Positions 5,129 through 63,661 are shown, numbered from the stretch's first letter. The stretch is 64,000 nucleotides of DNA from an uncultured virus (IMG/VR IMGVR_UViG_3300042391_000450) (IMGVR_UViG_3300042391_000450); one strand, 5' to 3'. Program-made: numbers and translations. Notes: generated by a model not told the origin, from the letters alone.

Positions 5129-5340
5129 TGGGTAATACAGTTAAGCCAACTCAAGAACATATCCAGCGGGCAAGAAATGGCATAATGATTCAGTACAATG
5201 CTATGTTTGATGCTGAGACTCGGAACAAAATGGCTGAACTGGGCATTGATAAGTTTATTGACTACCAGGCAGAGCGTATCGCACACGAACAGGCATACAC
5301 AATGTTCTACGCTAGCTGTTTGCATCCTAAAAGTGAATAA
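5128..5340 (+). CDS. Hypothetical protein
   Basis: TAATG overlap with upstream stop, GGAG SD. Confidence 0.7.
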   Translation: MGNTVKPTQEHIQRARNGIMIQYNAMFDAETRNKMAELGIDKFIDYQAERIAHEQAYTMFYASCLHPKSE

Positions 5341-5863: not shown

Positions 5864-6086
5864 TTTTACTATCCTGTCCAACTCATCTGAAGTAATCGTT
5901 CTTAGGGATCTAGGTCCCTGGGATACTTACAAAACGATTACTAATGATGCTGAAGCCGTAGTCAAGTATTTGTTTAAGTCAGGCCAAGCAACCGGGACAA
6001 AACAGATTGTATACTTTGACAGTGACGGCGAAAATACCAAGTTGAATCATGATGGCATAGGTAACTTTACTGGGTTCAGTAGCTAA
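5853..6086 (+). CDS. Hypothetical protein, 77 aa
   Basis: GAGG SD before ATG 5853 (start revised from 5712); DLG...TITNDAE.VV...Y.DSDG. Confidence 0.7.
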   Translation: MNANFTILSNSSEVIVLRDLGPWDTYKTITNDAEAVVKYLFKSGQATGTKQIVYFDSDGENTKLNHDGIGNFTGFSS

Positions 6087-6153
6087 GTTATTGATTCTTA
6101 AAGAAATCTATTTTTATCAAAAGGCTTGACTTCTTACCCAAATCTGCTATAAT
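6084..6153 (+). promoter_or_regulatory. IHF-like box plus early promoter
   Basis: TAAGTTATTGATT 6084-6096; TTGACT 6126-6131, N16, TG-C-TATAAT 6148-6153. Confidence 0.88.
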
Positions 6154-6187
6154 AGTTATATAAATTGATGAAACGGGAGATAAAAAG

Positions 6188-6343
6188 ATGTCAGACGATC
6201 AAGTAGTATTATGTTCACGATGCCAACAAGGAGAAGCCCAGTCTCCGCACACTTGCCCTTACGCAGAAGAAATAGCCGACGACCGTGAAACTCTGTGTAC
6301 TTGTTGCCAGGAATGTGAAACTCAATGCTGTCAGGATATATAA
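6188..6343 (+). CDS. Small Cys-rich (metal-binding) protein, 51 aa
   Basis: GGGAG SD; MSDDQVVLCSRCQQGEAQSPHTCPYAEEIADDRETLCTCCQECETQCCQDI (9 Cys); below ORF-track cutoff. Confidence 0.75.
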   Translation: MSDDQVVLCSRCQQGEAQSPHTCPYAEEIADDRETLCTCCQECETQCCQDI

Positions 6344-39660: not shown

Positions 39661-41376
39661 TTATTCCTCTGGAGGTAACACATCAGGTGTTGGTTGTAAT
39701 ATAGTAGAAAGCGCCTGCGATTCAGGAACTGCTCCTTGTGTGTTATTTAGATAGATTTCTGCTTGATCATTAATAAATCCTGATAGTAACGATTTGTCAT
39801 CATATGTAAATCCGGTTTCAGTTCTTACGTTTTCAGAAATTCGTACCCATATTCTTCCGTCCCAGCGATAAAGTATCTGAGGCAAATAATCTATACGCAA
39901 GAAGTAATCTCCCACTTGCGGATTTTGCGGAAATGATATACCTGCGCCTGTAGGGAATCCGTTAGGGGCACTACCATCACCGGTTAAGTAACCACTTGTA
40001 TAGCCAAAAGTTTGAGGAGTAGCACGTACAATAAATTGAAATCTAGGATCACAATCTGCTCTAAAGTCCATTACAGAAGTTATTTCATCAGTAAAGCCCG
40101 GTTGAGTAGGATCTTGATCTGCTGTTGCATAAGTGTTGTCTGTGGTACCATAAGGACCAGTTATTACCCCCAAAGACTGTACTGATAATACTTTTGTTCC
40201 TTCAACTGAACCTGATCCTGTATCAGTTAGTTCAGGTGCTTCAACAACTACTTGTAAACTAGCTTGTACAAACTTGTCTAGTTTTTCACTAAAATCCATG
40301 TCTGCTGTCATATCCCAAATACTTTTTAATGAGTCTTTAGATATCTTGATACCAATACTCGGTGTTTTGTACTTAGGATTACGCATTGATACTACTGACG
40401 CAGTTACTGAATTAGGTGAACCATTCAAGTTAGCGATAACGCTATAAGGTGGAGCAGGCTGTCTATAGTTAGATGATAAAGCGCCGTTTTGTTGAAACGG
40501 TCCATATGTTGGAACAATATAAAGTTTACTAGTATCATAACCAGCTTTTGGTACTAATCGTTTAGCTTCTTCTAACGCAGCGTTGTTGATACTAATATTT
40601 GTATTATAGGTACTTAAAATATCTTTCAAATCTTGTGCTGTATCTAGTTCCCAGTATACTGGATCAGGTGGAAGTTTTCCTATAGGTACTTCTTGTTTTG
40701 CAATATAATTTTTATCACCATATGAAATTACATATCCTTCAGGATATACACGATCAGGTTCCCATAGCCCAAGATAATTGTCTTTATTAATTGGTTCATT
40801 AAGTATTTGTGAAAACTCTTGACTGTCAACTAGCGGCTCGCACTTTATACGCCATAAGTGAGGATACCAAGTTTGTGAAAATCCTTCGCTAGCATAATTA
40901 GAATCGGTTACTTGATAAAATCTTTTTAATGCCACTGGTATAGTTTCTTTCAATGGATTATAATCTAATAAGTGAGGTAATTCTAAAACATCACCAACCA
41001 TTAATTTTCTACCAATGATATCAATCATATCATTGTAATGTATTACTATGAATATAATATCATTGTTTAAAAACAAACCAAACTGAGACAAATCAAAATC
41101 TAAATTTTGTACGTTATAGTGTCCTCGCAGTCTATAAATATCAGGATCATATGTTCTGTCTCTGTTTTCAAGGAACAGCAAATCTTGAATGTTAGTTGGG
41201 TCTAACTTATCATATTCAGGCTGAGTATAATCAATAGACGGACCTTGATTAGTAGGACCCAAATACTTGTGGATGTAAAGGTCTGTCCCACCTACAGTTA
41301 GTTGTTCCGAAATGGTACGATCCATAAATCTGTAGTCGTTTTGTTTATTGGGCCTATATAGGCTTAATCTTGGAAT
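39661..41376 (-). CDS. gp14: Neck protein (gp14-like) with insertions; probable ATT start
   Basis: LLFLENRDR.Y, LSQFGL, GDVLELPH; frame extends 17 codons upstream of 41325 to ATT with AAGGAG SD. Confidence 0.7.
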   Translation of the reverse strand: MPRLSLYRPNKQNDYRFMDRTISEQLTVGGTDLYIHKYLGPTNQGPSIDYTQPEYDKLDPTNIQDLLFLENRDRTYDPDIYRLRGHYNVQNLDFDLSQFGLFLNNDIIFIVIHYNDMIDIIGRKLMVGDVLELPHLLDYNPLKETIPVALKRFYQVTDSNYASEGFSQTWYPHLWRIKCEPLVDSQEFSQILNEPINKDNYLGLWEPDRVYPEGYVISYGDKNYIAKQEVPIGKLPPDPVYWELDTAQDLKDILSTYNTNISINNAALEEAKRLVPKAGYDTSKLYIVPTYGPFQQNGALSSNYRQPAPPYSVIANLNGSPNSVTASVVSMRNPKYKTPSIGIKISKDSLKSIWDMTADMDFSEKLDKFVQASLQVVVEAPELTDTGSGSVEGTKVLSVQSLGVITGPYGTTDNTYATADQDPTQPGFTDEITSVMDFRADCDPRFQFIVRATPQTFGYTSGYLTGDGSAPNGFPTGAGISFPQNPQVGDYFLRIDYLPQILYRWDGRIWVRISENVRTETGFTYDDKSLLSGFINDQAEIYLNNTQGAVPESQALSTILQPTPDVLPPEE

Positions 41377-41496
41377 TTTGGATCTCCTTACACTTTATCG
41401 TATCATTATATTTATCTTCGGGTATTGACTAATGCTCAAAGATTTGTTATCATATGTATTCATGATATAAATACCCCAACAAAGAGAACATATTGT

Positions 41497-42681
41497 ATGG
41501 CTATTAGACAAAAAAACACTGCTGAAGTTCGTGATCTTCGCCCAAAAGACTTGTTTGGGCTTAAAGGGCACGGAAACGAACCTAAATCAGTTGACTACTC
41601 TACTGAACAAAAACGACTGTCTTTTATGGGTAGTGCGTTTAACTGGTATAACTACTTTTGCTCCAATAAAGAAGCAAAACAGTTTATATGTGATTATCTT
41701 AATTCAACTGGCGATACTGCTACTGCTAAAAAAGTATTCCGAACTCCCGATAACAAAGTGGCACCCACATTTGGCTGGTTAGCTAGAATGTCTTTACGCG
41801 GATTTGAGCTAACAGAAGAAGAAAAAAAGCGATTAGCTAAAGAAGTAGCTAGGCTTGTTCATATGGATGATGAAAATCCTGAAACTGAAGAAACTATAGC
41901 TGCTGCGGTTGTAGTAGAAGAAACTAACAAAAGAAACATTCAAATTATAATGCGTGAAAGAGCAAGTGATGTTTCAGGTGAACTTCAAGGAATGCTAGAC
42001 GAATACATTAGTGATGGGTGTAAAACAGGTATTGACCCTACTACAAAAGTAATTAATTATTTGTCTGAAAAAAGTATTTTGCCGCAACACACTTCTATTG
42101 TAACTCAACCATTTACTCCCATTAAAGACGAACTTATTGAAGTTCAGCAAGGTACTGATGAACAATTAGTAGAAGGTTATTCACACCTTTCAAAAATGCA
42201 GATTAAAAATATAATCAAATACATTGACATTATTACTAGTGCGGTTAACTCGTATGTTGCGCTAAAACAAACTAATAAAGTAAAACGAGCTAAAAAACCT
42301 GTTTCTGTAGAAAAGCAAGTTTCTAAACTGAAATATTTGCGTAAGTTTATTGATGAAAAAACAAAACTGAATTTGGTTAGTATTGATCCTACTAAGCTCC
42401 ATAACTCAAGTGAATGTTGGGTATACGATACTGCTAAGCGCAAACTTTACCACTTTGTTGCTGATGAAATGAGCAAATGTTTAATTGTCAAGGGAAATAC
42501 ACTTTTAGGCTTTGACACTAAAGAAAGTGAAGCAAAGATATTGCGGAAGCCAGAAGAACAGTTAAAACAAATTACGGGTAGTAAGCCAGCAGCCAGAAAG
42601 TTTTTTAAAGATATCAAAGCTGTTGCTACTACACCAAATGGCAGATTTAACGATGCTATGATCATACTAAAAGCATTTTGA
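41497..42681 (+). CDS. Hypothetical protein
   Basis: ATG 41497 after TTGACT-N17-TATCAT and TATAAATA; FNWYNY, WVYDT..RKL, LRKPEEQL, NGRFN..IILKAF. Confidence 0.8.
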   Translation: MAIRQKNTAEVRDLRPKDLFGLKGHGNEPKSVDYSTEQKRLSFMGSAFNWYNYFCSNKEAKQFICDYLNSTGDTATAKKVFRTPDNKVAPTFGWLARMSLRGFELTEEEKKRLAKEVARLVHMDDENPETEETIAAAVVVEETNKRNIQIIMRERASDVSGELQGMLDEYISDGCKTGIDPTTKVINYLSEKSILPQHTSIVTQPFTPIKDELIEVQQGTDEQLVEGYSHLSKMQIKNIIKYIDIITSAVNSYVALKQTNKVKRAKKPVSVEKQVSKLKYLRKFIDEKTKLNLVSIDPTKLHNSSECWVYDTAKRKLYHFVADEMSKCLIVKGNTLLGFDTKESEAKILRKPEEQLKQITGSKPAARKFFKDIKAVATTPNGRFNDAMIILKAF

Positions 42682-42690
42682 GGAGAACAC

Positions 42691-43119
42691 ATGAATATTG
42701 ATTTAAACAAGTACAAAGATTTTGTAGAGGTTGTAACTAGTAACCCAAGCAATCATTTTCACATTTTTCAGCAAAGGTGTGAAGAGCTAAATTCGCAAAA
42801 TAAAGAAGATGTAACTGGGCCTGCAGTAAATGTTCCGTTGCTGATTACTGCATGTTTGGGTTTAGCAGCAGAAAGCGGAGAGTTTATCGAGGTAAACAAA
42901 AAAATCATTTTTCAAGGTAAAGAATTGAGTGATGAAAACGTTTACCACATGAAACGTGAACTAGGCGATATTATTTGGTATTGGATCAATGCTTGCAGAG
43001 CATTAGGTTTAGATCCAAACGATGTGATTGCTGAAAACGTTAAAAAGCTTGAAGCAAGATATCCTGGCGGCACGTTTGATCCATTCTATTCTGAAAATAG
43101 AAAAGAGAATGATTTATAA
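42691..43119 (+). CDS. MazG-like NTP pyrophosphohydrolase
   Basis: GL.AESGEF.E..KK..FQGK, RELGDIIWY, EN..KL..RYP. Confidence 0.9.
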   Translation: MNIDLNKYKDFVEVVTSNPSNHFHIFQQRCEELNSQNKEDVTGPAVNVPLLITACLGLAAESGEFIEVNKKIIFQGKELSDENVYHMKRELGDIIWYWINACRALGLDPNDVIAENVKKLEARYPGGTFDPFYSENRKENDL

Positions 43120-43337
43120 TGCAAAAATGGGAGGATGATCTTTATCTTTTTACACCAGAAGAATTAGCAAAGATTCCTGAAGGTACAGTACTTACTTGTA
43201 TTGACATGGAAAACTATACCAAAGGAAAAGATCACTTAGACGATGATACTAGATTTGGCTGTACAGCATATGGTGTAAAAGATCCATGGAATCATCCCCT
43301 TAAAGATTTGTTTTTGATATTTAAACTTATAGAATAA
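43119..43337 (+). CDS. Hypothetical protein
   Basis: TAATG coupling; LFTPEEL..IPEGT.L.CI...D.DTRFG..AYG. Confidence 0.75.
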   Translation: MQKWEDDLYLFTPEELAKIPEGTVLTCIDMENYTKGKDHLDDDTRFGCTAYGVKDPWNHPLKDLFLIFKLIE

Positions 43338-43341
43338 TTGT

Positions 43342-43746
43342 TTATCAAGCAAGGTAAGTGTTAGCCACAATAACATCCAAGTCCCACCTCAATCCGTGTT
43401 GTGTGGGTATAGAAGCGAGTCTAAGCTTGAACTGAGTAAAATCAGTGACTCCATTCACAAGACTACCCCGAATAGGGATGCCATAAACGTCTAACCCTTG
43501 TTAGAAACGTTTCTTGTGTCTAAATGGTTGTTGTTGCCAAGAGATGGTAATTGCGATAGATACTCTTGGGCTGGTTCAAACTCCTCGGTGAATAGCGTTT
43601 GAACGTTAACAGCGAATACGGCAAACTCCCTTTATGGGTTAGTGAGACATAGACAATCCTCCACTGTAATGTTTGAATTCATCGTTGCCTAAGTACCTCA
43701 AGAATAACCCGTGGCTTGTAGATTTTATATCTACTCGCCATGCCCT
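43342..43746 (+). ncRNA. Candidate large structured non-coding RNA (family not recognised)
   Basis: About 400 nt with no credible ORF, more GC-rich than the flanks, at least 9 nested stems, candidate promoter TTGTTT-N16-TAGAAT (43308-43335). Confidence 0.65.
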
Positions 43747-43815
43747 TAGAATAATTATTTCATGTAAACTAAATGTAACCAGATAAATAGTTATAACATA
43801 AAGGAACCATGAAAA

Positions 43816-44592
43816 ATGATCCAAACAATTCCAACTAATCTTAATCTTACTCAATTAAAAGAGCAATTATTTAATTCATGTTTATTAAGATTAGGTCAAA
43901 ATATAATTGATCTTGAAGTTGATCCTGAGCACTTGGAAGTAGCATATAATTATGCTATATCTACATATAGACAACGTGCGCAGAATTCCACACAGGAAAC
44001 TTACACACTTTTTACTATAGAAAAAAATGTAGATACTTATACACTTCCCAGTGAATTTATTAATGTAAGATGCTTATACCGTAGAACAGTTGGATTAGAA
44101 ACTGGCCCCGGCGCCAGCTCATTTGATCCATTTTCAAGTGCGATATTAAATACTTACTTGCTTAATTATAACTCTGCCGGTGGCTTGGCTACTTACGATT
44201 TTTATGCTGGTTATGTTGAGTTAGCTGCTAGAATGTTTGGTGGTTACTTGACTTATACATTTGATCCTGTATCTAAGACACTTAGAATAGTTCGTGATTT
44301 TAAGGGTTCAGGTGAAAAGATCCTTATTTGGGCGGATATCCTGCGACCTGAAGCTACATTGTTACAAGACCCTTCTACTGGTACTTGGATTCAAGATTAT
44401 ACACTTGCGGTTTTAAAAACTATCATTGGTGAAGCCAGAGAAAAGTTTGCTACTATTGCTGGACCCAGTGGTGGTACATCACTTAACGGCGCAGCAATGA
44501 AAAGTGAAGGCTATGCTATGATAGAGAAATTGATTGATGAACTCAAACGATATGTTGATAATTCACAACCTCTGACATGGGTGCAAGGCTAA
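43816..44592 (+). CDS. gp13: Neck protein (gp13-like)
   Basis: LRLG..IIDLEV, Y.LP, WIQDY.LA..K..IGE..EKF..I.GP.GG..LNG; GATAAATA at 43782. Confidence 0.85.
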   Translation: MIQTIPTNLNLTQLKEQLFNSCLLRLGQNIIDLEVDPEHLEVAYNYAISTYRQRAQNSTQETYTLFTIEKNVDTYTLPSEFINVRCLYRRTVGLETGPGASSFDPFSSAILNTYLLNYNSAGGLATYDFYAGYVELAARMFGGYLTYTFDPVSKTLRIVRDFKGSGEKILIWADILRPEATLLQDPSTGTWIQDYTLAVLKTIIGEAREKFATIAGPSGGTSLNGAAMKSEGYAMIEKLIDELKRYVDNSQPLTWVQG

Positions 44593-44657: not shown

Positions 44658-45275
44658 ATGCCCAACAAAATTATATCTATCTCGGGTTTCATAGGCTCGG
44701 GTAAAGATACAGCAGCAGAATACTTAATCAACAATCATAATTTTACTAAACTAAGCTTTGCAGGATCGTTAAAAGATGCTATCGCAGTAGTATTTGGGTG
44801 GGATCGTGTTTTACTTGAAGGTGAAACTTTAGAGAGTAGACAATGGAGAGAACAAATTGATCCATGGTGGGCTGCTAGATTAAACATGCCCCATCTTACT
44901 CCTAGATGGATATTACAATACTGGGGTACTGAAGTTTGTAGACATGGTTTTCATAAAGATATTTGGGTAGCATCGTTAGAAAACAAAATTCTTAAATGCG
45001 AAGGTAATATCGTAATAACTGATGCTAGATTTGCTAACGAACTAAGTGTAGTAAAAAAACTAAATGGAAAATTGATTCGTATTGAACGCGGTGAACTTCC
45101 GAACTGGTATGATGATGCTGTTAGATTCAATCAAGGTACTGAAGGTTGCTTACCGCCTCGAGGCGTTCATGCTAGCGAATACAGTTCTGTAGGATTAGAG
45201 TATGATTGTTACCTAGCTAATAACGGCACTAAAGAAGATTTGTTTGCATCATTAAACTTAATAGTCAACTTGTAA
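44658..45275 (+). CDS. Deoxynucleoside monophosphate kinase (T4 gp1-like)
   Basis: G.IGSGKDT, SFA..LKD, TPR.ILQ.WGTE..R, ITD.RF.NE, H.SE. Confidence 0.92.
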   Translation: MPNKIISISGFIGSGKDTAAEYLINNHNFTKLSFAGSLKDAIAVVFGWDRVLLEGETLESRQWREQIDPWWAARLNMPHLTPRWILQYWGTEVCRHGFHKDIWVASLENKILKCEGNIVITDARFANELSVVKKLNGKLIRIERGELPNWYDDAVRFNQGTEGCLPPRGVHASEYSSVGLEYDCYLANNGTKEDLFASLNLIVNL

Positions 45276-45608
45276 ATCTCCCCTCTTCCAAGTCACTTCT
45301 TTTCTTTTGACAACTTCTACGCAGCATAAACATATACTGCGTAGATTGTTTAACTTAATATCAGTTAAATCCCCGTTGATATGGTACACTACTATTTGAG
45401 TAGCGTATACACTTCTAAATCCACATAAGTCACACATTGTTTTTTTCTTATAACCGCTTTTTTGCCAAAGAAAAGTTCTGGGTTTTTTTCTGGGCTTTTT
45501 CCTACCGCAGCTATTACATGTGCTTCTATAATGATACACATTATTTTTCTTATAATTGATAGCACAAACACATGTATTACATTTTGGACATATAGGTCTT
45601 ATATTCAT
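45258..45608 (-). CDS. Zn-ribbon / degenerate HNH protein
   Basis: Four CxxC-type pairs; YHINGD.....NNL..IC..C; AATAAATA-N5-ATG. Confidence 0.75.
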   Translation of the reverse strand: MNIRPICPKCNTCVCAINYKKNNVYHYRSTCNSCGRKKPRKKPRTFLWQKSGYKKKTMCDLCGFRSVYATQIVVYHINGDLTDIKLNNLRSICLCCVEVVKRKEVTWKRGDLQVDY

Positions 45609-63154: not shown

Positions 63155-63661
63155 ATGATTATTGATAACTTCGGTCAGCACATCTTTAACGAAAAAGACA
63201 TATGTAATTTGTACATGACTGACCCTACTCGGCAGTTAAAATCATTACTTGTAAAAGAAGTAATTAACTTTGATTCAGAACTAGATTTACAAAAACTACC
63301 AGAACTTCTTGAATATCAAACCAGTGACCAAACTATTGAAGAATTTGACAACATAAGATCAACCGAATGGTTCATGCCTGAAGAATATAAAAATTTTGAT
63401 ATTGCTAAATGGATTTTAGAGCAATGCAAAACTGATGAAGAATTACAACGCGCAGGAGAAGAACTGATTATGTTTCAAGAACGAGACATGTTTATTCTTC
63501 TTCAATACTTAAAATATTTAGTAGACACTATGCGTAAACATAACATAGTATGGGGTGTAGGTAGAGGTAGTAGTATTGCTAGTTTTGTTTTATATCTAAT
63601 AGGGATACATAGGATAAATAGTTTATACTATCAAATATCAATTAATGAGTTTTTAAAATAG
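63155..63661 (+). CDS. dnaE: Miniature DNA polymerase III alpha, N-terminal (GRGS) half
   Basis: R..EEL......L.YLVD......WGVGRGSSIASFVLYLIGIH.I...Y....EFL; TTGACA-N17-TATCAT-N6-ATG. Confidence 0.85.
   Translation: MIIDNFGQHIFNEKDICNLYMTDPTRQLKSLLVKEVINFDSELDLQKLPELLEYQTSDQTIEEFDNIRSTEWFMPEEYKNFDIAKWILEQCKTDEELQRAGEELIMFQERDMFILLQYLKYLVDTMRKHNIVWGVGRGSSIASFVLYLIGIHRINSLYYQISINEFLK

Follow-up and report, generated by a model that had tools for sequence, protein, structure and literature searches.

The 64,000-nt stretch of viral DNA analysed here (the window), part of the 267-kb phage record G000, carries on its plus strand, at 43338-43755, a member of a real and so far undescribed RNA family of large and small phages. 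It is a conserved, heavily pseudoknotted non-coding RNA with four pseudoknots; its ends were placed by conservation, and 69 representatives share 42 invariant and 80 near-invariant alignment columns, many of them unpaired. Covariation, together with the absence of an Rfam family and of any tRNA or tmRNA call in the window, bears out the preliminary description of the locus as a new large phage non-coding RNA. The explanation that fits best, to which we give an even chance, is a replication-origin RNA similar in action to RNA II of ColE1 and unrelated to it in fold, which would form an R-loop and supply a primer. The RNA probably works like this known kind of origin primer without being a member of it. 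Such a role was not among the options of the preliminary description (ribozyme, scaffold, decoy or template).

The RNA directly abuts the end of an operon at 42691-43337 (+), formed by MazG (42691-43119) and an ORF of 72 codons (43119-43337) whose stop at 43337 borders the 5' end of the RNA. The downstream neighbour is a neck (head-tail adaptor) gene at 43816-44592 (+; phrog_211, E 1.9e-25), whose product is 37-41% identical to the listed proteins of Pseudomonas, Agrobacterium, Sinorhizobium and Salmonella jumbo phages; the jumbo myophages Atu_ph07 and PA5oct are among the listed relatives. The phage also encodes a DnaB-like helicase, a Toprim primase, a UvsW-like helicase and a tail sheath. 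All sequence words that had been named in this region are present where they had been placed, and the RNA is indeed more GC-rich (41.8%) than each 1-kb flank (34.8%). It was said to fill the largest ORF-free gap, which is true of 43338-43815 (478 nt) if a 71-codon antisense ORF at 43639-43854 is ignored; otherwise the gap measures 301 nt and ranks fourth. The proposed promoter TTGTTT-N16-TAGAAT is not supported: it overlaps the last part of the 72-aa coding sequence and is missing from the three sites called, with 5.5 expected by chance. The sole minus-strand site called lies in MazG and no opposite-strand promoter stands out. The word TAGAATAATT does occur at both ends, but its 5' copy consists of the last codons of the 72-aa ORF and was seen in the subclade of the window only.

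The late-type promoter word GATAAATA at 43782-43789 (+), which we take to be a T4-type late promoter, precedes the neck gene outside the RNA and is shared by neck loci that lack the RNA. Directly 5' of the RNA, many homologs (L007, L012, L085, L089, L093, L102, L111, L141, L223 and others) have a GC-rich hairpin, which has a U-run in some of them and may be a terminator or a processing signal. Metatranscriptome X1 (one study, depth about 3-4) contains contigs nearly identical to 43523-43750 and 43747-43897, which were not counted as evidence of expression since the search that found them used this very stretch and they are strandless and may be DNA; a near-identical MazG piece is absent among the listed X1 matches. 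Two or three short AACCCATAGA-type repeats were seen between the RNA and the late promoter in L088, L139, L151, L159 and L247.

Full copies of the RNA were found at 214 loci, many of them redundant; 86 copies are distinct and 69 of them, used as representatives, are below 95% identity. Their mean identity is 67% (lowest 47%) and their median length about 386 nt (range about 365-655). They precede a neck gene in 53 cases, belong to small phages in 11 and stand in other or short contexts in five; seen from the other side, 17/80 neck-gene loci have a homolog at the same place. The pattern scans yielded hits that were genuine by profile score in 75/83, 16/52, 34/52 and 0/18, then in 16/27, 1/43 and 66/66 cases; these scans require exact words and will have missed more distant members. 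The second copy in G002 was detected by the profile alone. In GTDB genomes none of 18 pattern hits was genuine, the scan having used a single 18-mer that is absent from divergent copies. GenBank phages gave no match beyond one 38-nt hit (E 0.1), and blastn of the L223 copy against the 72,556 PLSDB plasmids gave none at E 0.1.

The window has no Rfam match at gathering score, and the RNA region searched up to E 10 gave one chance hit (E 6.6), so that no known family was matched, as had been supposed. Among 17 homolog loci Rfam returned six weak hits to unrelated small families and no ribozyme at E up to 10. The covariance models of GOLLD, ROOL, ARRPOF, PAGEV, GEBRO and HEARO likewise gave 0 matches in the window at gathering score, and ARAGORN called neither tRNA nor tmRNA there. 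A full-text literature search, covering few subscription papers, found none of four conserved words of the RNA and no description of such an RNA. In the parts of the IMG/VR survey available to us, RNA candidates measure at most 151 nt and four tables contain no match; its remaining files may catalogue fragments (PMC10690425).

The structure was read from an alignment of 54 representatives (A2), in which 84 pairs were named in 20 helices. Over these pairs 96.2% of 4482 cells are paired, a score favoured by the derivation of the structure from the same alignment, and slid registers pair in at most 40%. Both sides change in 52/84 pairs, compared with 33.1 in column shuffles, none of 500 being as high. 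A home-made tree-aware test returned ten pairs at E 0.05 or lower, one of them non-canonical, in P2, P5, P5b, P6, P7b and P8, with the strongest signal in P6. The pseudoknots failed this test (pseudoknot 3, E 0.5; pseudoknot 4, E 2.9 and 9.9; pseudoknot 1, E 12). Their support comes from independent double changes on the tree (11 events in four pairs of pseudoknot 3, five in two pairs of pseudoknot 4, four in two pairs of pseudoknot 2) and from divergent copies found later. The folding energy is modestly better than that of shuffled sequences (z -2.08; 3/100 equally good). G.U pairs and UUCG/GNRA loops assign the RNA to the plus strand, to which all elements below refer.

From the 5' end, pseudoknot 1 joins 43345-43350 to the P4 loop (43425-43430), the register in the window being read by eye, and both partners change in 5/6 of its family pairs. 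H-type pseudoknot 2 (43352-55 with 43364-67) covaries and has 3 bp in the window. Stem P2 (43359-63/43371-75) is supported by covariation and tree-aware pairs; P3 (43384-88/43401-06) and P4 (43417-21/43447-51) come next. P3x (43407-09/43464-66) shows no both-side change in A2 and one compensatory case in L374. P5 (43456-62/43512-18), which encloses the hairpins P5a and P5b, is 100% paired with 5/7 pairs changing on both sides, and the hairpin P6 (43537-43569, loop L6 43544-43562) is 100% paired with 6/7. P7/P7b, P8, P9 and P10 lie within 43570-43684, and pseudoknot 3 (43586-92 with 43678-84) is 99.7% paired. The conserved loop L10 of P10 (43645-43661) varies at several positions in divergent copies. 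The 5' end was first guessed to pair with L10, which was dropped since it covaries with the P4 loop. A telomerase-like template in L10 was also rejected; neither a reverse transcriptase nor matching repeats were found in G000.

Most of the stems proposed earlier belong to this structure. TGTTA/TAACA, CCCAC/GTGGG, CACAAGA/TCTTGTG, CCAAGAG/CTCTTGG, AAACG/CGTTT with CTAAC/GTTAG, GCTG/CAGC, GTTCAAAC/GTTTGAAC and AGTG/CACT are all backed by covariation in the 54 homologs, and GTAGAT/ATCTAC was upheld as part of a longer 3' helix. GAGTC/GACTC with ACTGA/TCAGT is misaligned in A2 and was left out of the pair count, and CCATT/AATGG lies outside the set examined pair by pair. The two long-range pairings of the preliminary description are not supported: one position of AGCCAC/GTGGCT pairs in just 9/53 homologs, and the last two positions of AGGTA/TACCT pair in 23/45 and 24/44. 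In divergent copies AGG covaries with the adjacent loop, not with TACCT. What had been overlooked are four real long-range helices and a tandem repeat at the 3' end.

The 3' tail is a tandem repeat whose unit consists of a docking word and, 3' of it, a distal word. In repeat R1 (43685-43705) the docking word at 43685-88, complementary to L6 by alignment column, is followed by the distal word CCTCAAGAAT at 43696-43705. In repeat R2 (43729-43752) ATCTACTCGC at 43729-38, which pairs with L6 or with the spacer M, is followed by the distal word CCCTTAGAAT at 43743-52. Spacer M (43706-43728) can hide R2 in the hairpin GGC..GTAGAT/ATCTAC..GCC. Pairing of L6 with R2 forms pseudoknot 4, with one conserved bulged pyrimidine. 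The L6 core pairs with R2 in 69/69 copies, the R1 docking word is complementary to this core in 61/69, and M and R2 share a run of 6 bp or more in 66/69, the last being a loose count as a long region was searched. An alignment-free comparison of own with swapped partners (55 segment pairs in 69 copies, ignoring relatedness) gave the strongest signals for M:R2 (z -10.1) and L6:R2 (z -8.5); pseudoknot 1, between the 5' end and the P4 loop, came third (z -4.9). The L6:R1 duplex was not significant (z -1.3), several segments having been mis-extracted.

Individual copies agree with these pairings. Pseudoknot 4 shows three independent C-G/U-A swaps; in L359 a G to A change in L6 is matched by C to U in both R1 and R2, and in L362 L6, M and R2 are altered together at one position. 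M is much longer in L152, L370 and L362. The RNA is a two-state switch, as the two covarying partners of R2, L6 and M, occupy the same R2 bases and are mutually exclusive. Between R1 and R2 the distal words vary in concert (longest shared run 6.3 in own versus 5.1 in swapped pairs), for example as AGTAAT, AGGAAT, TGAAT, AGAAGAT, AAGCAG or GCAT in both copies. No partner for them was found inside the RNA among the 55 segment pairs, with J5, X, M and L4 weak or inconsistent. Their partner would be a protein or, in the template strand of the DNA, the other repeat; concerted change without a partner in the RNA fits pairing with DNA.

In jumbo myophages the RNA is optional: of 70 neck loci whose upstream DNA is long enough, 16 have it. 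Its distribution needs five changes on a tree built from 48 distinct neck proteins (mean of shuffles 10.0, lowest 6), which indicates inheritance in part and gain or loss in part. It is absent from G005 (333 kb, 92% complete) and G004, which makes an essential packaging RNA unlikely, and present in two copies in G002. No link to MazG, to the neck gene or to the mini-DnaE gene was found; 11/69 representatives are in small phages with no neck gene near. The suggested role as a template is unlikely and RNAs linked to reverse transcriptases (retron, DRT, DGR) were rejected, since RVT_1 is absent in the 4/4 carrier records G000-G003, one of which is complete. Three of the 303 ORFs of G000 follow the RNA in a comparison of three genomes with two, too few genomes to mean anything. 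One of the three, a GP88-like 422-aa ORF (G000 41260-42528; L355:3261-4529, -), occurs in three RNA-bearing jumbo genomes and is absent from two RNA-less ones. No GC or TA skew switch was observed at the RNA in G000, G001 and G002, which counts for little in phages that may use recombination for replication as well.

A tmRNA does not track the RNA, since it is found in G000 and G001 and was not called in G002, G004 and G005. The RNA itself is not a tmRNA: its internal frame is broken by indels, ARAGORN found none in the window and the tmRNA of G000 lies elsewhere. The latter is a permuted two-piece tmRNA at 168987-169409 (-), and G001 has one too; G000 has no tRNA and G001 has 46. RNase P RNA was rejected as well, there being no Rfam hit at E up to 10 and the 5' end pairing with the P4 loop, not with the 3' end.

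The 11 representatives from small phages belong to phages of about 35 kb. One of these, G009 (35 kb, 99% complete), has an SU10-type portal and capsid and a terminase, and lacks a neck homolog. Searches of all its 31 ORFs of at least 75 aa against Pfam, PHROGs or both, and with our own profiles, detected no polymerase, primase or helicase. We surveyed the corresponding slot in 70 small-phage loci around the virion gene next to the RNA in G009. It contains a primase/helicase in 12 loci, a gene for a PolA-like protein in 11, the RNA in one (G009 itself) and none of the three in 46, many of which are short or arranged differently; no locus carries two of the three. The order of genes in L531 is up101, a 381-aa gene of the PolA-like type, dn144 and zn109, and in L508 and L527 the same without dn144. 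In L104 it is up101, the RNA, dn144 and zn109, in L263 the same as far as dn144, and in L097 and L266 the same without dn144. The RNA and the PolA-like gene are thus exchanged between the same flanking genes. The slot also houses HNH, methyltransferase and other accessory genes, and may be just a variable region.

The 381-aa gene (L531:4071-5213) represents a family of 350-400 aa, present also in L508, L527, L546 and L547; the L531 protein has at least 449 relatives. A model of the protein (pLDDT 91.7) was used in a fold search, and all listed PDB matches were family A DNA polymerases (best E 3.5e-5, TM 0.32-0.41), the TM values pointing to a shared polymerase core and not to a whole-chain match. 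The likeness was revealed by the fold search alone and missed by a profile search of PDB sequences. The Atlas places the L531 protein near D5/DUF5906 proteins and T7-type RNA polymerase. A 600-aa form was grouped with it by sequence likeness (33% in L552), not by fold. Proteins of the family A polymerase type serve as primases, with a partner protein, on other mobile elements (PMC7581432, PMC10061031). All five PolA-like loci examined have a pair of near-perfect direct repeats of 28-61 nt; in 4/5 one of the two is internal to the gene and the other is at its end. Fold and repeats make the family a likely new initiator or primase with its origin. The repeat at L531:4370-4397 and 5218-5245 contains GTGAGACAAGTC, which resembles the start of L10, in one of the five loci and probably by chance.

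None of the 11 RNA-bearing small records has the PolA-like gene; one of the 11 is at least 90% complete. No RNA was found in 20 related genomes, which gave two flank hits of 21-23 nt only. In seven further complete small genomes the slot is empty; two have the PolA-like gene elsewhere and five have neither RNA, PolA-like gene nor recognised primase/helicase, so that the lack of a replication gene does not imply the RNA. Phages of 33-40 kb form a large group that includes G009, G010 and G022-G041 (L492-L495, L499-L584). The members read have a TAAATA word seen at late genes of jumbo phages, and the group may be satellites of jumbo phages. In several small-phage copies TAAATA occurs some hundred bases upstream of the RNA. 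In six small phages (L492:13957-14238, L495:5298-5582, L365, L367, L445 and L472) the RNA is directly preceded by a lone DUF5710 ORF, which encodes a possible partner of the RNA. ORF-free stretches of 600-640 nt were also noted in small phages (L492:4930-5546, L572:4093, L573:342, L579:630); that of G009 is located right behind the capsid gene and is possibly another RNA or an origin.

Long gaps behind the RNA often contain either a GAGCGNAGCGA-like word or a pair of adjoining hairpins whose internal loops are GA/GAA. The double hairpin or the word occurs within 220 nt downstream on the RNA strand in 19/69 copies and on the other strand in 0/69, a rate inflated by the descriptor having been written from these same sequences. 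The positives comprise 9/11 small-phage copies and 10/58 others; behind the copy of the window and 48 of those 58 no pas-like hairpin is present. The background of the GAGCGNAGCGA-like word in five jumbo genomes is 0.4-1.8% per 220-nt strand window. In ColE1 (NC_001371) the same word is found at 1332 on the RNA II strand, about 135 nt behind an A5 run in which RNA II presumably ends, and we assume that it belongs to ssiA. G6 runs of ColE1 lie at 928-933 and 1175-1180, about 265 and 20 nt before the primer end. RNA II, too, has a two-state pairing switch.

Unwinding exposes ssiA, which is situated downstream (PMC3167613); PriA binds the hairpin known as pas (PMC5778457). The hybrid formed by RNA II is persistent and is cut by RNase H (PMC5043065), and it requires an rG/dC contact (PMC4412123). 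The phage RNA resembles RNA II in being a long non-coding RNA with a word repeated upstream and near the 3' end; behind a minority of copies, that of the window not among them, a GAGCGNAGCGA-type word or double hairpin follows at a short distance on the RNA strand. ColE1 needs no initiator protein (PMC5043065, PMC4412123, PMC3167613). G009 has no recognised replication gene, but neither have 5/7 complete relatives without the RNA, and the phage of the window has primase and helicase. In contrast to RNA II, the phage RNA measures about 390 nt instead of 550, has an unrelated fold with four pseudoknots, is phage-borne and had no plasmid match, and its priming is a prediction. The family has no conserved G-run and a different direct repeat, R1/R2, and neither an antisense RNA I equivalent nor Rop was seen.

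Phage T4 primes from R-loops at several origins (PMC3016281). Its oriF and oriG are transcript-primed origins, among several, of a large myophage (PMC3016281), as proposed here; they differ in that T4 needs no more than a promoter and an AT-rich stretch, whose sequence is not fixed, whereas a 400-nt fold is conserved here. The structured plasmid motifs ARRPOF, PAGEV and GEBRO (223-349 nt) have been tied to replication by position or deletion (PMC5737381); the RNA described here occurs in phages and not in PLSDB plasmids, and has no Rfam match.

If the RNA is an origin primer, it would be co-transcribed from the upstream operon and would fold as it is made. In the first state L6 would hold R1 and M would hide R2; in the second L6 would grip R2. 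The direct repetition would allow R1 in the RNA to pair with the template DNA at R2, or R2 with that at R1, and L6 might also grip the displaced DNA strand, giving a lasting R-loop at the 3' end of the RNA. RNase H, or the RNA itself, would leave a 3'-OH primer from which leading-strand synthesis could start, and the displaced strand would expose the pas-like hairpin for helicase loading. In small phages the RNA would replace the primase/polymerase module; in jumbo phages with their own primase and helicase it would be an optional origin, one of several as in T4.

The exchange of the RNA with the PolA-like gene in one slot, its presence in G009, and the lack of co-occurrence with this gene (0/11) or of the RNA in the 20 related genomes argue for the primer. 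So do the strand-specific downstream hairpins, with the ColE1 word in a like position, and the concerted distal words of R1 and R2, to which the G6 runs and rG/dC contact of ColE1 offer a parallel. The direct-repeat pairs of the PolA-like modules in the same slot and the several R-loop origins of T4, matched here by a dispensable RNA with two copies in G002, point the same way. The argument is weakened by the 5/7 complete small genomes that have neither the RNA nor a replication gene, by the 46/70 loci without any module, by the completeness of one in 11 RNA-bearing small records and by the chance that the slot is a mere variable region. It is further weakened by the hairpin missing behind the copy of the window, by the lack of a skew switch, a plasmid match, a G-run and an antisense RNA I equivalent, and by the L6:R1 value. 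If true, it would add a structured phage primer RNA with a fold unrelated to RNA II and an origin of a new type, and would hint at how DNA is copied in small phages that lack replication genes. If false, the family is still a new one of 400 nt with four pseudoknots and a conserved two-state 3' end, and a candidate for ribozyme assays and cryo-EM.

A self-processing ribozyme is unlikely. Its core would dock R1 and R2 in turn and cut or join there, in 3' end formation or in excision or circularisation of M. The four pseudoknots, the many unpaired invariant and near-invariant columns, the docking of two repeats on one loop and the conserved bulge in the L6:R2 helix are what such an RNA might show, but neither the window nor the 17 homolog loci matched an Rfam ribozyme at E up to 10, and none of the 69 representatives lacks M. 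Nor is P7 formed by the group I-like words. Three short words, closest in L370 and L356, resemble what we take to be the P, R and S elements of group I introns. Positions 43461/43462 covary with 43513/43512 in P5 instead, C43654 is unchanged in L360, L365, L445, L450, L460 and L468, the order R, P, S fits no circular permutation, and the RNA is intergenic after a natural stop and interrupts no gene; a group I intron was therefore rejected. A cut that leaves a 3'-OH would reconcile ribozyme activity with the primer role. We regard with similar doubt the combination of both, a self-priming origin ribozyme that would invade its own gene via R1/R2, make the 3'-OH primer by its own catalysis and replace the primase-polymerase. 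It would mean that a 35-kb phage, perhaps a satellite of jumbo phages, replicates without a replication gene of its own.

Equally tentative is a free RNA of the GOLLD/ROOL type, acting as scaffold or decoy and forming multimers by swapping of 3' tails. GOLLD and ROOL are large, ornate phage RNAs with structures but no known function. The present RNA is likewise large, ornate, pseudoknotted and optional in phages (PMC12286853, PMC5737381), and its covarying long-range helices could form between molecules. It is shorter, has tandem 3' repeats with a switch and is not beside tRNAs in the window, G000 having none. A scaffold or decoy would leave both the exchange with primase/polymerase genes and the strand-specific downstream hairpins unexplained. 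Since the present RNA trades places with primase genes and genes of the family A polymerase fold, replacement of a replication protein is directly testable.

The gains or losses over the 48 neck proteins (at least five), the occurrence in unrelated jumbo and small phages and the two copies in G002 could also reflect a selfish or passenger cassette that spreads between gene junctions via its repeats and fold and has no role for the phage. We hold this to be quite improbable, as the RNA has no conserved internal ORF, a transposase, reverse transcriptase or endonuclease is never a constant neighbour, and 53/69 copies sit at one junction with no gene interrupted. The mutually exclusive 3' pairings and the shared orientation with the downstream genes would suit a cis-acting switch or antiterminator controlling read-through or processing. 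Such control is about equally improbable: no U-run follows the M:R2 hairpin and no terminator was called there, a separate late-type promoter usually stands between the RNA and the gene, and the downstream genes are unrelated across carriers. Least probable is a structure acting as single-stranded DNA at an origin, which the slot evidence would suit as well as it does the primer and which covariation cannot separate from RNA (PMC5737381), but the frequent G.U pairs, the UUCG/GNRA loops, the several pseudoknots and the constant sense orientation behind an operon speak against it.

Three other features of the window were noted. A second long ORF-free stretch of 421 nt is located at 5864-6284. 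A Cys/His-rich ORF of 116 aa with an HNH-like look at 45258-45608 (-), without Pfam or PHROG matches, is kept between the dNMP kinase and sheath genes in relatives. At 63155-63661 (+) an ORF of 168 aa, for which no link to the RNA was found, matches just a short part of a DNA polymerase III alpha domain.
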